Assembly: GCA_031271175.1 (NCBI GenBank)
Contig: JAISWE010000190.1
Location: 27 to 64,026 of the forward strand
Direction: 5' to 3'
From: Bacteroidales bacterium
Lineage (GTDB): Bacteria > Bacteroidota > Bacteroidia > Bacteroidales > UBA4181
DNA: 64,000 nt
Below are positions 3,161 to 45,038 of this stretch, in pieces; position 1 is the first letter of the stretch; every line of letters begins with the position of its first letter. A model generated the notes under the pieces. It worked only from the letters and a program-made list of their open reading frames with translations. It ran no database searches and had not been told where the DNA came from. The position numbers and the translations under genes are program-made.

Positions 3161-3200
3161 AATTTTCAACTTTCAACTTTCAATTTTCAACTTTCAACTT
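3161..3200. repeat. heptamer-periodic tract (YTTTCAA)n, about 5.5 units
   Basis: The sequence ttttcaa ctttcaa ctttcaa ttttcaa ctttcaa ctt is read directly. The same motif recurs at 25051-25085. Confidence 0.9.
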
Positions 3201-3234
3201 AAAAAAGCGCAGGATTTTTATCTCCTGCGCTTTT
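3201..3234 (-). terminator. intrinsic terminator of the SPFH operon (A6-hairpin-T4, usable in both directions)
   Basis: gcgcagga (3207-3214) pairs with tcctgcgc (3223-3230). On the minus strand the hairpin is followed by a T6 run. Confidence 0.75.
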
Positions 3235-3251
3235 GCTATGCTAAGCAATGT

Positions 3252-7256: not shown

Positions 7257-7363
7257 AAGAGAAAAGATAAAAGTAAAAAGAGAAGAGAAAAGGTGTGCTT
7301 CGCACAATTAAAAAGGCAAGTTTGTACTCTTCACTTTTCTCTTTTCGTTTTTCACTTTTCACT
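7257..7363. repeat. imperfect purine/pyrimidine inverted repeat with heptad periodicity in the tRNA spacer
   Basis: The purine arm is 7257-7292 (agaagagaaaagataaaagtaaaaagagaagagaaaag). The pyrimidine arm is 7327-7363 (ctcttca cttttct cttttcg tttttca cttttca ct). By eye the arms are about 70% complementary. A small gtgc-ttc-gcac hairpin sits between them. Confidence 0.7.
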
Positions 7364-24990: not shown

Positions 24991-25023
24991 AAAAAAGCCG
25001 CACCAATTGGTGCGGCTTAAAAA
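24991..25023 (-). terminator. minus-strand-oriented intrinsic terminator with no minus-strand gene to its right
   Basis: agccgcacc-aatt-ggtgcggct (24996-25017). A T6 run follows the hairpin only on the minus strand. On the plus strand the hairpin is followed by taaaaaaa. Confidence 0.55.
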
Positions 25024-25050
25024 AACGAAAGAAACAAAGAGCTATAAAAA

Positions 25051-25085
25051 CTTTCAACTTTCAACTTTCAACTTTCAACTTTCAA
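25051..25085. repeat. (CTTTCAA)x5 perfect heptamer tandem repeat at the junction
   Basis: ctttcaa is read five times without interruption. The tract ends 9 nt before the SusD stop codon. Confidence 0.95.
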
Positions 25086-35285: not shown

Positions 35286-35391
35286 TGTATATCAATAATT
35301 CTAAATATCAATAATTCTATTTTTTAATTTAATTTTTTTAATTTTTTTTAATTTTTTTTAATTCTATTTTTTAATTTAATTTTTTTTTAAT
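35286..35391. repeat. extremely AT-rich repeat block with T7-T9 tracts directly upstream of the Big_2 gene
   Basis: tatcaataattcta occurs twice and attctattttttaatttaattttttt twice, plus repeated taattttttt units. The block ends at the ATG at 35392. Confidence 0.8.
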
Positions 35392-41217: not shown

Positions 41218-41766
41218 TCAAAGAAAGCTTGTTATTTCTTCGCTAAGAGGTTTTACGCCCGAAGAGAAGAATTGCAGCAGATTCCCTTTGCTGTCGATCA
41301 GATACTTACAGAAGTTCCATTTCGGTTCTTTCGTGTTCCATCCGTTTTTGGATTTGTCTGTCAGCCATTGATACACTGCGTTTTTGTGTTTCCCCTTGAC
41401 AGACGACTTTTCCATCATCAGAAAGCGGACGCCATAATTTTCGCTGCAAAAGAGCGCTATTTCCCCGTTGGTACCGGGTTCCTGTTTTCCAAAGTCGTTG
41501 CTCGGAAATCCGATCACTACCAATTTGCCTTCGTATTGTTCCGAAAGTCGTTGCAAATCGGCATATTGAGAAGTATAACCGCATTTGGACGCCGTATTGA
41601 CAATCAACACGTTCTTTCCTTTAAAATCGGAAAAATCGACTTTTGCCCCATCCAGTGCGACAAAACTCAACTGGTAAAAACCGGAAGATTTGCCTTCTTT
41701 GACCTGTGCTTCCGAAGGGTTAATATTCAACAACAAGATGAATATTAATAGCTTAAATGCTTTCAT
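41218..41766 (-). CDS. glutathione peroxidase family protein with signal peptide
   Basis: The start was set at ATG 41766 (MKAFKLLIFILLLN..). NVLIVNTASKCGYT...VIGFPSNDFGKQEPG is the GPx active-site region. Confidence 0.85.
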   Translation of the reverse strand: MKAFKLLIFILLLNINPSEAQVKEGKSSGFYQLSFVALDGAKVDFSDFKGKNVLIVNTASKCGYTSQYADLQRLSEQYEGKLVVIGFPSNDFGKQEPGTNGEIALFCSENYGVRFLMMEKSSVKGKHKNAVYQWLTDKSKNGWNTKEPKWNFCKYLIDSKGNLLQFFSSGVKPLSEEITSFL

Positions 41767-41837
41767 ACGTCCGTTATTTAGGATGAATTTAATGTCAAAG
41801 ATATTGAAAAATGGGCAAAATTGCAATTTTTTTTTAC

Positions 41838-41965
41838 GGAACACCCCCTGTTGTCATCTATTTCCTGTTTTTTCACTTTTTTCTGGTTGTTTTTAGATCG
41901 GTTTAATATCAATTAGTTACCAGAAAGTTTTTTGTTTTTTGGGTATCCCATTGAGGGAGACAGGA
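41838..41965. repeat. left copy of a ~100-125-bp direct repeat flanking the tandem array
   Basis: 41864-41965 aligns with 42371-42473 at roughly 85-90% identity by eye. ggaacaccccctgttgtcatctattt (41838-41863) recurs at 42475-42500. Confidence 0.8.
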
Positions 41966-41970
41966 GTCCC

Positions 41971-42369
41971 TTTGGGGAAAAGGTATATAGGTTTTGGGGA
42001 AAAGGTATATAGGTTTTAGGGGAAAGGTATATAGGTTTTAGGGAAAAGGTATATAGGTTTTGGGGAAAAGGTATATAGGTTTTAGGAAAAAGGTATATAG
42101 GTTTTAGGGAAAAGGTATATAGGTTTTAGGGAAAAGGTATATAGGTTTTAGGGAAAAGGTATATAGGTTTTAGGGAAAAGGTATATAGGTTTTAGGAAAA
42201 AGGTATATAGGTTTTAGGAAAAAGGTATATAGGTTTTAGGAAAAAGGTATATAGGTTTTGGGGAAAAGGTATATAGGTTTTGGGGAAAAGGTATATAGGT
42301 TTTAGGAAAAAGGTATATAGGTTTTGGGGAAAAGGTATATAGGTTTTAGGGGAAAGGTATATAGGTTTT
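41971..42369. repeat. 18 tandem copies of a 22-bp unit TTTT[GGGGAAAA/AGGGGAAA/AGGGAAAA/AGGAAAAA]GGTATATAGG
   Basis: I counted 18 ggtatatagg cores at strict 22-bp spacing. Only the 8-nt purine block varies, in four variants. There are no spacers, so this is not a CRISPR array. Confidence 0.95.
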
Positions 42370-42370
42370 T

Positions 42371-42500
42371 CCTGTTTTTCTCACTTTTTTCTCGTTGTTC
42401 TCAGATCAGTTTAATATCAATTAGCTACCAGAAAGTCTTTTGTCTTTTGGGTGTCCCATTGAGAAAAACAGGACGGAACACCTCTGTTGTCATCTATTTT
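42371..42500. repeat. right copy of the flanking direct repeat
   Basis: See 41838-41965. This copy is complete and ends in cggaacacctctgttgtcatctatttt. Confidence 0.8.
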
Positions 42501-42720
42501 GTTTATTTCGCATCCTTTACATGAACAGGGTACAAACGTCCATCTGTGCCAAAAACATGGAAAATTCCATATTTTTTTATGAAAATATACATTGTAAGAT
42601 ATAGCATAAGACCCGTTAAATTTTTCTAATTTTGTGCCAAAATTATATTTGGTATGAAACAATGCCTTTCAGGCCATCTTTATACCTTATTTATTTGCAT
42701 CACTATATCGGTAATTAAAA

Positions 42721-43671
42721 ATGAAAGATATCATTGCACCTGTCGATAAGCGGCTCTTATTAAATGAATTGACTCCGGACAAGTTTTTGCGTAAAACCAA
42801 CAAACTTAACAACGATCTGTATGTAGTTTCGGCTCATGATTCTCCGAACGTGATGAGAGAGATAGGACGTTTGCGCGAATTGTCGTTCCGTTATGCCGGC
42901 GGAGGCACCGGCGAAGAAATAGATATGGATCATTACGACGTTGCCGAAAATCCATACAGGCAATTGATCGTGTGGAACAACACGGAACAGGAAATCCTTG
43001 GCGGTTACCGGTTTCATATTTGCGACGAGTCGCACGTCGGCAAGGATGGTAAAATCAATTTGGCGACAGCAGAACTGTTTCATTTTTCCGATACCTTCAT
43101 CAGGGAATACTTGCCGTACACCATTGAATTGGGACGTTCGTTCGTACAGCCCGCCTTTCAATCCACCAATCGTTTCGGGAAAGGGATGTACTCGCTGGAC
43201 AATTTGTGGGACGGCTTGGGAGCCTTGGTGGTGCGGAATCCCGACAAACGCTATTTCCTCGGAAAAGCCACCATGTACACATCCTACAACATAAATGCCC
43301 GCAACATGATTCTTTTCTTCCTCAACAAACATTTCGGTGACAGGGAACGGTTGATCTATCCTCACGAAACCCTTTCCCTTCAACCGGATATGCATGAAGA
43401 TGAAATGAACAAAATCTTCATCGGCAACAGTTATGAGGAAGATTATCGAATCCTTTTCCAGAAGGTAAGAAGCTACGGAGAAAATATTCCGCCCATGATT
43501 CATTCCTACATGAACCTGTCGCCATCCATGCGGATTTTTGGGACGGCACGCAATCCTTTCTTCGGCGGTGTGGAAGAAACCGGCCTGCTGATTACCATCA
43601 ACGATATATACGGAAATAAAGTGGAACGCCACATCTCAACCTATCAAAACAATAACGAAAAGCAAATATGA
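42721..43671 (+). CDS. OlsB/hemolysin-like GNAT N-acyltransferase (glsB-like, N-acyl amino acid lipid synthesis)
   Basis: 316 aa. REIGRLRELSFRYAGGGTGEEIDMDHYD and GYRFHI are typical of the OlsB-like acyltransferases found in Bacteroidota. It is translationally coupled to an acyltransferase gene. Confidence 0.6.
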   Translation: MKDIIAPVDKRLLLNELTPDKFLRKTNKLNNDLYVVSAHDSPNVMREIGRLRELSFRYAGGGTGEEIDMDHYDVAENPYRQLIVWNNTEQEILGGYRFHICDESHVGKDGKINLATAELFHFSDTFIREYLPYTIELGRSFVQPAFQSTNRFGKGMYSLDNLWDGLGALVVRNPDKRYFLGKATMYTSYNINARNMILFFLNKHFGDRERLIYPHETLSLQPDMHEDEMNKIFIGNSYEEDYRILFQKVRSYGENIPPMIHSYMNLSPSMRIFGTARNPFFGGVEETGLLITINDIYGNKVERHISTYQNNNEKQI

Positions 43672-45038
43672 TCAGTTTCGAGAACATCAGCAAAACCAAC
43701 ATTCATTACCGGATACTCTATCATTACGTTAATTTTGTCCACAATTTTATTTATTATTCCCGTTACTATGTACTGCACAAAGAACGGATTCCCCGTGGAG
43801 AGCCTATCGTCGCCGTGAGCAACCACCAAAACGGCTTGACGGATGCTTTGGGAGTCCTGTTTTCATTCGGACGGGACGGACGCTACGTGGTATTCATCGC
43901 GCGGGCAGACATTTTCCGGTACAAAATAGCAGCCATTCTGCTGCGCTGGCTGAAAATCATGCCCGCTTTCCGTTCGGTGGATGTCGGTAAGGAAGGACTT
44001 GAAGACAATGCCGAAATTTTCGCACAGTCGGCAAAAGTGCTCGTCGATAACGGTGTGGTATGCCTGTTCCCGGAAGCAGGACATGAAGATTGTCACCATC
44101 TTGGGACATTCAAGAAAGGTTTCGCTCGCATCGCCTTTAAAGCGGCGGAAATGACGAACTATGAAAAACGAATCCACATCCTGCCCATGTCCAACCACTA
44201 TTCCGATTATTTCGGAGTACAGAACAAACTGATCATTACCGTCGGCGAACCCTTTACATTTGAAGACCTGTACGAAACCTACCAACAACACCCTCAACGC
44301 GCCCAAAAAATACTGACCGACCGCGCTCGGGAAAAAGTAAAAGCGTTGATGCTCGACATCGAAGACAAGTCACTGTATGAAGAATATAACATACTCCGCA
44401 CCATATATGACTGGAACTACCTGCGGAAAAGAGGAAAATCCGTACGATATTTCCCGAACATACTGCAAGCCGACAAGGAAATTGTAGCATCAGTAAGTCT
44501 GCTACGCGAACAGAACCCCTCCTGCTACGATAAATTATTAAAAACAGCCAAAGAATATAGCCTGCTATTGGACAAACTATACCTGCACGACTGGATTTTC
44601 CGACAAAAACTCTCCTTCGGCACTTTCCTGCTGCGCTTCCTCTTGGCTTTACTGGTTATTCCATTCATTGTTTATGGGTTTATACTTAATGCGATTCCAT
44701 TCAACACAAGTACCTTGGTCACGCGGCGTATCAAAGACCAGATGCTGCATTCCTCGTTCCATTTCGTAATCGGCGTACTGTTTGCGTTCCCGATATGGTA
44801 TATGGCGCTGTTTATTACGGCATGGTGTGTGACATGCAAGCTATGGATGGCGCTCCTGTTTCTGGTAACCCTTCCCGTCAGCCTGGTGATCTATATTCAC
44901 AGCAAAATTATTGTCGGAAAACAATTCAACCGCTTCCGCCGTTTTCGCTTCTGGTTTCGTGGCGACCGTTTCTACCTGCGCGCTATTGAACTGCGAAAAG
45001 AGATTGTAGGGATGCTGGACGAATTATTGCCGGTATAA
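43668..45038 (+). CDS. lysophospholipid/1-acyl-glycerol-3-phosphate-type O-acyltransferase with C-terminal TM region (glsA-like)
   Basis: The HX4D motif is NHQNGLTDAL, and FPEAGH is also present. There are C-terminal hydrophobic helices. The start overlaps the upstream stop. Confidence 0.6.
   Translation: MISFENISKTNIHYRILYHYVNFVHNFIYYSRYYVLHKERIPRGEPIVAVSNHQNGLTDALGVLFSFGRDGRYVVFIARADIFRYKIAAILLRWLKIMPAFRSVDVGKEGLEDNAEIFAQSAKVLVDNGVVCLFPEAGHEDCHHLGTFKKGFARIAFKAAEMTNYEKRIHILPMSNHYSDYFGVQNKLIITVGEPFTFEDLYETYQQHPQRAQKILTDRAREKVKALMLDIEDKSLYEEYNILRTIYDWNYLRKRGKSVRYFPNILQADKEIVASVSLLREQNPSCYDKLLKTAKEYSLLLDKLYLHDWIFRQKLSFGTFLLRFLLALLVIPFIVYGFILNAIPFNTSTLVTRRIKDQMLHSSFHFVIGVLFAFPIWYMALFITAWCVTCKLWMALLFLVTLPVSLVIYIHSKIIVGKQFNRFRRFRFWFRGDRFYLRAIELRKEIVGMLDELLPV

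Follow-up and report, generated by a model that had tools for sequence, protein, structure and literature searches.

We examined a 64,000-nucleotide stretch of DNA from an uncultured Bacteroidales bacterium (NCBI GenBank: GCA_031271175.1, contig JAISWE010000190.1, positions 27 to 64,026 of the forward strand), referred to here as the window, and in particular the repeat-rich spacer between its gpx and glsB-like genes. The glutathione peroxidase gene gpx occupies 41218–41766 on the minus strand, with its likely ATG at 41766 (PF00255 GSHPx, E = 5e-35). Divergently oriented on the plus strand are a glsB-like gene for a GNAT N-acyltransferase (42721–43671; PF13444) and a further acyltransferase gene (43668–45038, plus strand; PF01553). 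These Pfam assignments confirm the flanking genes named in a first-pass annotation of the window, which had been made from the sequence alone. The spacer upstream of glsB measures 955 bp, as opposed to ~127–300 bp in relatives, and contains a non-coding element of 611 bp (41864–42473) consisting of a head, a linker, an array of 22-bp units, and a second head. [quoted passage not shown]

Organization of the Element

Tandem Repeats Finder (TRF) reported a single array in this region (41971–42369; period 22, 18.1 copies, 95% matches, 0 indels, score 707), by far the top-scoring tandem repeat of the 64-kb window. Set in register, the minisatellite comprises 18 × 22-bp units on the plus strand (41974–42369), each made of an 8-nt purine block followed by the invariant 14-mer GGTATATAGGTTTT. 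The purine block takes four forms (GGGGAAAA, AGGGGAAA, AGGGAAAA, and AGGAAAAA), which succeed one another by type as 1-1-2-3-1-4-3-3-3-3-4-4-4-1-1-4-1-2, exactly reproducing the first-pass description. The 14-mer has 18 mismatch-free occurrences in the window, every one of them within the array, and allowing up to two mismatches raises this to 20 matches, against 0.42 expected from shuffled sequences. All 18 units are direct (0 inverted). Like block types occur in runs (3-3-3-3, 4-4-4, 1-1), and identical neighboring pairs number 7 of 17 compared with 4.0 expected (permutation, p = 0.07), a marginal excess that is suggestive only. The 18 units are counted on a metagenomic contig and should be taken as the assembled number. 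A CRISPR (clustered regularly interspaced short palindromic repeats) array was rejected, in agreement with the earlier annotation, as the units abut, only 3/22 positions vary, and unique spacers of ~25–40 nt are lacking. A coding reading was likewise discarded: stop codons interrupt all six frames and no open reading frame (ORF) of at least 40 aa spans the array.

Two further properties had been attributed to the array: strong curvature and a promoter-like motif in each unit. In a wedge model, the ratio of end-to-end distance to contour length is 0.59 for the array, compared with a genomic mean of 0.86, and a 5th percentile of 0.64; phased A6 tracts, taken as an ideal control, give 0.30. The estimate is approximate. 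On these values the array is predicted to be curved, but moderately rather than strongly. The motif TAGGTTTT is present in every unit (18/18) and does agree with the Bacteroidota −7 box at 7/8 positions. Promoters of this phylum carry a −7 box, TAnnTTTG, with a TTTG expected ~19–21 nt upstream. Counted from the sequence, the nearest TTTG upstream of the unit motif lies 13 or 35 nt away, and because neither distance corresponds to the expected spacing, a promoter role for TAGGTTTT appears unlikely.

The array is enclosed by two terminal modules in direct orientation. Head 1 (41864–41965, plus strand, ~102–103 bp, with either 41863 or 41864 as its first nucleotide) is the left module and is joined to the array by an 8-bp linker, GTCCCTTT (41966–41973, plus strand), which looks like a degenerate remnant of the end of a unit. 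Head 2 (42370–42473, plus strand, 104 bp) is the right module. The two heads are 88.5% identical to each other (92/104), in line with the ~85–90% estimated previously. Overlooked in that estimate was a perfect 14-bp inverted repeat at the two ends of head 2, TCCTGTTTTTCTCA (42370–42383) and TGAGAAAAACAGGA (42460–42473); the corresponding terminal inverted repeat of head 1 is partly decayed. Outside the heads lie the two copies of a short duplication, which the first-pass annotation had called tails. The first, CGGAACACCCCCTGTTGTCATCTATTT (41837–41863, plus strand, 27 nt), abuts the left end of the element, and the second, CGGAACACCTCTGTTGTCATCTATTT (42474–42499, plus strand, 26 nt), repeats it apart from a single substitution and a 1-nt indel. 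The rest of the 64-kb window contained neither another head nor another terminal inverted repeat.

A Second Copy at an Unrelated Locus

Among GTDB representative genomes (one for each species), a search for paired GGTATATAGG cores at a distance of 22 bp gave 26 loci, almost all of them from Bacteroidales. One of these, locus L026 of the Bacteroidales metagenome-assembled genome (MAG) Nc350_bin140, contains a head, a linker, an array, and a second head in direct orientation. Its array holds 6 perfect and 3 degenerate 22-bp units versus 18 in the window, and the junction ACAGGA-GTCCCTTTGGGGAAAAGGTA is identical in both. By blastn, the element is the sole similarity between the two loci (88–90% identity), extending over L026 5707–6102 and window 41861–42473 and stopping exactly at the outer ends of the heads. 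Window head 1 is 90% identical to both L026 heads and window head 2 is 91–92% identical to them, while the two L026 heads are 97% identical; within each genome, the heads are thus mutual nearest relatives. Three heads out of four, namely window head 2 and both heads of L026, are closed by the perfect 14-bp inverted repeat. The heads therefore look like element termini, each closed by the inverted repeat, and with heads bounded in this manner the whole element would end in TCCTGTTTTTCTCA ... TGAGAAAAACAGGA.

The surroundings of the two copies differ. The L026 element sits between hisIE and rnhA, as opposed to gpx and glsB, and has on either side one copy of a direct duplication of ~115–121 bp; these copies are 91% identical over the aligned stretch with one 6-bp indel. 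The duplication takes in the 3′ end of rnhA (its last 42 nt; the final 14 codons plus stop codon). The tail sequence of the window is absent from the L026 copy. Since L026 shares the heads, linker, and array but has different flanks, the tails appear to be locus-specific duplicated target DNA outside the repeated unit, and head-array-head is, judged from these sequences, a discrete, transposable-looking unit. The layout proposed earlier therefore stands insofar as heads and tails are direct repeats, but not in its treatment of head plus tail as one larger unit. That proposal had also allowed for the array turning out to belong to a repeat family or to the terminus of a mobile element, which is essentially the outcome here, although the family in question was not previously described.

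Interpretation as a Probable MITE-like Insertion

The element has several of the features by which MITEs are recognized: a length of 611 bp (below ~1 kb), no coding capacity, terminal inverted repeats, and copies at non-homologous sites. Nothing else explains the block, because it contains no ORF, has no Rfam match, and occupies a spacer that in relatives spans only ~127–300 bp. We propose that the element inserted between the divergent gpx and glsB promoters, duplicating 26/27 bp of local sequence, and that an enzyme acting in trans would have carried out the insertion, generating target duplications that are long and differ in length. Slippage, or unequal recombination among the units, would have expanded the array to 18 copies, and this would explain both the invariant core and the runs of like variants. 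The core may serve as a recognition site for a protein.

Locally, the effect of the insertion would be limited to a moderately curved tract and to promoters ~640 bp further apart. A motif scan placed a candidate −7 box for gpx, TATCTTTG, at 41803–41796 (minus strand) and one for the glsB-like gene, TATATTTG, at 42644–42651 (plus strand), with an alternative for the latter, TAATTTTG, at 42627–42634 (plus strand). The boxes for both genes lie outside the element, so the insert would mainly spread the divergent promoters apart. The first-pass suggestion of a regulatory region for gpx and glsB did not hold up well: the L026 copy lies between unrelated genes, related arrays occur in every orientation, and a dedicated regulatory role of the array or element at this locus appears unlikely. 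There is so far no evidence for a cellular function of the element here. If the insertion reading is right, the 955-bp gpx–glsB spacer is mostly inserted sequence and not regulatory DNA.

Several observations weigh against this interpretation. Only two copies of the element are known, one per genome sampled, with coverage of 64 kb for the window genome and 6.9 kb for L026. While the core and array scan recovered L026, the ~100-bp flanking unit, which the first-pass annotation had also named as a query, gave no further copies: the head pattern GTTTAATATCAATTAGNTACCA had 0 matches in metagenome contigs of the Joint Genome Institute (JGI) and 0 in viral contigs, blastn with the whole block returned 0 matches among 72,556 plasmid and 50,697 phage records, and the translated head, used as a protein query, matched no called ORF. 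The translated array, used likewise, matched only arrays of the general family described below. No transposase or autonomous partner was found in the window, nor by the head searches of the metagenome, viral, plasmid, and phage data. Neither locus has an empty site among the relatives compared; the closest GlsB relatives (79–88%) have other upstream neighbors, with spacers alignable to ~170 bp before the ATG, and an exact-protein look-up of the window GlsB returned no other contig. The flank duplications, at 26 bp and ~118 bp, fall well beyond the range usual for target-site duplications; measured as 26/27 bp in the window and 115–121 bp in L026, they are long, unequal, and atypical for DDE transposases. 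The nested arrangement of flank, head, array, head, and flank could also arise by another recombinational route.

A more ambitious extension of the MITE-like reading, which we regard as speculative and on balance unlikely, is that the core is the recognition site of an undescribed Bacteroidales system for DNA binding or transposition, that 4-unit cassettes are selected at hundreds of intergenic sites in some gut species, and that the element spreads with 26- to ~120-bp duplications, regenerating both heads. If true, this would be a mode of transposition without a described bacterial model. For the MITE-like reading itself, the implications are narrower. It would add a second, sequence-unrelated type of minisatellite-carrying MITE in Bacteroidales, and its direct, identical heads together with long, unequal duplications would point to an uncharacterized insertion mechanism. 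In metagenome assemblies, arrays of this sort are likely to cause breaks and to mislead copy-number counts; they could also be of use as strain markers.

The Wider 22-bp Repeat Family

The unit also occurs free-standing in other genomes. Scans of genomes and metagenome contigs yielded arrays of the form aaaGGTATATAGGtttc + 4 variable nt. A count matrix of 50 distinct units defines an 18-bp core, RAnAGGTATATAGGTTTC (family form ending in TTTY), followed by four positions at 0–0.4 bits; the core positions left free by the search pattern are still 74–100% conserved. All 18 window units score at least 17/18 against this core, and the three variable positions of the window array all fall among the five least-constrained positions of the family (the four free ones and the R at unit position 1), a coincidence with a chance of ~0.0065 by our own calculation (10/1540 ways). 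Carriers include Bacteroidetes oral taxon 274, a Porphyromonadaceae MAG, Porphyromonas gingivicanis, and the human-gut MAG MGYG-HGUT-03813, the last with 15 loci from the genome scan, many of these 8-kb loci having a second array. The arrays are always intergenic and take every orientation relative to genes.

Arrays elsewhere contain 2–8 units with a mode of 4, a size that accounts for 19 of the 36 distinct arrays. Against the family maximum of 8, the 18 units of the window are an outlier, and the window array does not share the usual cassette of about four units with an often inverted or palindromic last unit. Orthologous arrays differ by whole units between strains (L005 vs L060; L066 vs L089), which, along with the different unit count of L026, supports the earlier idea of a variable-number repeat. 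Across eight orthologous allele sets, in which only core positions not fixed by the search pattern were counted, 9/424 core sites are variable compared with 61/960 flanking intergenic sites (Fisher p = 7e-4). Because core polymorphism between strains is ~3-fold below that of the flanks, the 18-bp core appears to be constrained, whether by selection or by homogenization between units. The unit apparently belongs to a Bacteroidales intergenic repeat family without an earlier description. In the literature searched, core strings were encountered only in primers and unrelated sequences, and nothing was found on 22-bp tandem repeats in Bacteroidales. With its oral and gut members, constrained core, and stereotyped cassette size, the family offers bait (units RAAAGGTATATAGGTTTC) for a DNA-binding protein.

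Further features of the family were recorded along the way. In the gut species (L004–L005, L011, L013, L015, L017–L024, and L027; many metagenome loci among L030–L130), we estimate ~1 array per 13 kb from the second arrays present within the 8-kb loci. Most of its cassettes have 4 units, the last often inverted or palindromic (GGTATATACC), giving a long hairpin and then a T-run. Runs with an ~11-nt period (TCGGATTRR / TCTGATTAG) often directly precede 22-bp cassettes (L005, L017, L019, L060, L121, and L123), which suggests composite repeat mosaics in the gut MAG. P. gingivicanis has two units, AAAAGGTATATAGGTTTT, 22 bp apart in a Mu-like prophage (L001 7043–7082 = L028 975–1014), situated between transposase ORFs and a MuB-like ATPase gene, and a separate 4-unit array (L010) with CCTATATAGG cores at both ends. 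At L006 (1481–1954), a 7–9-unit array lies between perfect 19-bp direct repeats, TTTATCGGACAGCAATAAT (1616 and 1936), a further copy being inverted (1481), making it a further array enclosed by duplicated flank sequence. Other families share the GGTATATAGG core (L009, L039, L041, L050, L068, L071, L124, L127, L133; L008), including a Prevotellaceae 22-bp hairpin unit (GGTATATAGGcgATATACCatc) and a 23-nt unit from a Porphyromonas MAG (GGTATATAGGtaggacatctgta). Many metagenome matches to GGTATATAGG-N12-GGTATATAGG were set aside as unrelated G-rich or 11-bp-period repeats.

Alternative Explanations

The constraint on the core raises the question of whether the array is primarily a set of binding sites, spaced 22 bp (two helical turns) apart on one helix face, for a Bacteroidales DNA-binding or nucleoid protein, and thus an architectural or regulatory module. 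We consider this possible but doubtful as the leading explanation, and it is compatible with mobility. In its favor, Porphyromonas, oral taxon 274, Porphyromonadaceae, and gut Bacteroidales all retain the 18-bp core, whereas even neighboring units have different 4-nt spacers; it is also consistent with the low core polymorphism, the stereotyped four-unit cassette, the confinement of window variation to positions that are free in the family, and the moderate predicted curvature of the tract. However, no candidate protein is known, the position and orientation of the arrays relative to genes are inconsistent, and gene conversion between units could also lower core polymorphism. In this organism, a genome-wide architectural role is unlikely given that the 64-kb window contains no other unit, and 18 near-identical units look like a recent neutral expansion. 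Of the first-pass suggestion of a protein-binding or iteron-like array, protein binding thus remains plausible from the conserved core and its low polymorphism, while the iteron half was dropped for want of a rep gene, DnaA boxes, and plasmid context. An integrated plasmid or phage origin or partition site, whether iteron- or centromere-like, is the least probable of the explanations considered. Plasmid R6K has 22-bp iterons, which the spacer-less 22-bp direct repeats do resemble, and two family units reside in the Mu-like prophage of P. gingivicanis. Yet no rep, par, or integrase gene adjoins the array, whose neighbors are gpx, MlaE/MlaF, and the acyltransferases; DnaA boxes number 19 window-wide against 14 expected, with 0 in the spacer and no cluster; the plasmid and phage records returned nothing; and the family occupies many chromosomal intergenic sites per genome.

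A purely local origin, in which head plus tail was duplicated in place and a variable-number tandem repeat grew at the junction with no mobility, would account for the direct duplications around the array, for the closer similarity of heads within a genome (97% in L026, 88.5% in the window), and for one window-specific site that the window heads share. We find it improbable: the same block lies between different genes in L026 with a different outer duplication, the independent rise of 100-bp heads that are 88–90% identical and joined to an identical linker is not credible, and the order of flank, head, array, head, and flank is nested, not tandem. There is slightly less to recommend the view that an assembly error created the array or set its length. 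The contig is metagenomic, short reads make it difficult to count near-identical 22-bp units, exact internal repeats extend to 87 bp, and a run of identical units may have collapsed; but the architecture recurs in L026, which was assembled independently, and the non-periodic order of four variants is unlike a collapsed loop. Moreover, all 99-mers of the region are unique, so short-read assembly could have resolved the array and its order of variants. A non-coding RNA, such as a repetitive sponge or a structured small RNA from a head, is very improbable. Folding z-scores are −3.4 to −3.7 for the heads and −7.5 and −10.9 for the array folded on itself, but these values are a trivial consequence of the quasi-palindromic unit and the terminal inverted repeat. 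The structural ensemble is diffuse (frequency of the minimum free energy structure ~0, centroid nearly unpaired), the four heads provide no compensatory-change support for an internal stem, and no canonical Bacteroidota promoter lies inside the element. Rfam returned nothing at gathering score across the window, nor at E ≤ 1 in 41700–42730.

Relationship to Described Systems

The MITE-like reading has precedents in form. In Porphyromonas gingivalis, BrickBuilt and PgRS both combine an intergenic, MITE-like structure with a spacer-less internal minisatellite of variable copy number (Klein et al. 2015, PMC4596501), and BrickBuilt and PgRS/MITE464 have been reviewed (PMC10969869). The first-pass statement that no equivalent has been described accordingly needs qualification: minisatellite-bearing MITEs are known, but are unrelated in sequence to the present one. 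BrickBuilt is likewise intergenic, non-coding, and from Bacteroidales, with a spacer-less 23-nt minisatellite (~two helical turns) between modules that carry short terminal inverted repeats, and its copy number ranges from 1 to 22.8 between copies, such that the array can confound assembly (PMC4596501). The differences are nevertheless extensive. The 23-nt BrickBuilt unit, AGAYCATARTATCCTCTCRTRTG, has no similarity by eye, judged against the published consensus, to the 22-nt unit here (RAAAGGTATATAGGTTTT + 4 nt); its leader and tail modules are distinct, whereas here one head is present in two direct copies; it has IS5-like terminal inverted repeats (GAGACCTTTGCA as opposed to TCCTGTTTTTCTCA); and its putative target duplications are 2–5 bp or absent, compared with 26/27 and 115–121 bp. 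BrickBuilt is also present at 19 copies per genome and only in P. gingivalis and P. gulae, whereas the 22-bp unit is additionally free-standing in many genera. Membership was rejected on unit sequence, terminal inverted repeats, and leader/tail design, and by sequence comparison the present element is an analogue of BrickBuilt, not a member. PgRS/MITE464 resembles it in being MITE-like with internal 41-nt tandem direct repeats and repetitive flanking segments (PMC4596501), but, compared via the published consensus only, differs in unit length and sequence and has IS5-type terminal inverted repeats.

The flank duplications have a single counterpart. Insertion sequences (IS) IS1549 and IS1634 generate variable direct repeats of 8–514 bp upon insertion, without a mechanistic model, and this IS1634-family behavior is the only one described that matches duplications of 26/27 bp and 115–121 bp (PMC2266710). 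The end consensus of the family, C-----YT, is weakly matched by CCTGTTTT, although its information content is low and ~1 in 32 sequences would match by chance. Unlike the present element, IS1549 and IS1634 are autonomous, 1.5–2 kb long, and transposase-encoding; no such gene or full-length IS was found here. Repetitive extragenic palindromic (REP) sequences and bacterial interspersed mosaic elements (BIME) of Proteobacteria are similar to the 22-bp family in being short, quasi-palindromic, intergenic, present in both orientations and in small mosaics, and at high copy in some genomes. In contrast, the 22-bp family is mostly direct, holds to a fixed 22-bp register in which a 4-nt spacer is free, is not known to be linked to any RAYT-type transposase, and belongs to another phylum. 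Plasmid iterons such as those of R6K correspond in their 22-bp unit length, direct tandem arrangement, and conserved core, but here there is no Rep gene, DnaA boxes, or plasmid context, and the arrays are dispersed on chromosomes. The element is unlike the described cases in combining two direct heads that bear inverted repeats with long, unequal flank duplications and a unit that is free-standing in several genera.

Local Genomic Context

Beyond gpx lie the genes for MlaE and its ABC ATPase (MlaF). GlsB homologues have the same acyltransferase gene pair, and the closest homologue is 88% identical. A sigma-70 scan gave counts at or below shuffle level and is uninformative for Bacteroidota. In that closest relative (L002, 95–175), whose contig ends 780 bp upstream of glsB, the long glsB upstream region has a different repeat, with direct and inverted copies of GTGACCTACATCACA; the spacer upstream of glsB may be a recurrent landing site for repeats.

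Other repeats were noted elsewhere in the window. Two identical heptamer microsatellites, (AACTTTC)x5, occur at 3164–3200 and 25049–25085, each adjoining a terminator-like hairpin (3203–3235 and 24992–25024), and the interval from tRNA-Ala to tRNA-Met contains a related ACTTTTC repeat (7326–7363). An AT-rich, low-complexity tract of the TTTAA/TTTAATTTTT type separates two genes in a polysaccharide-utilization cluster of the SusC/SusD type (35312–35387).

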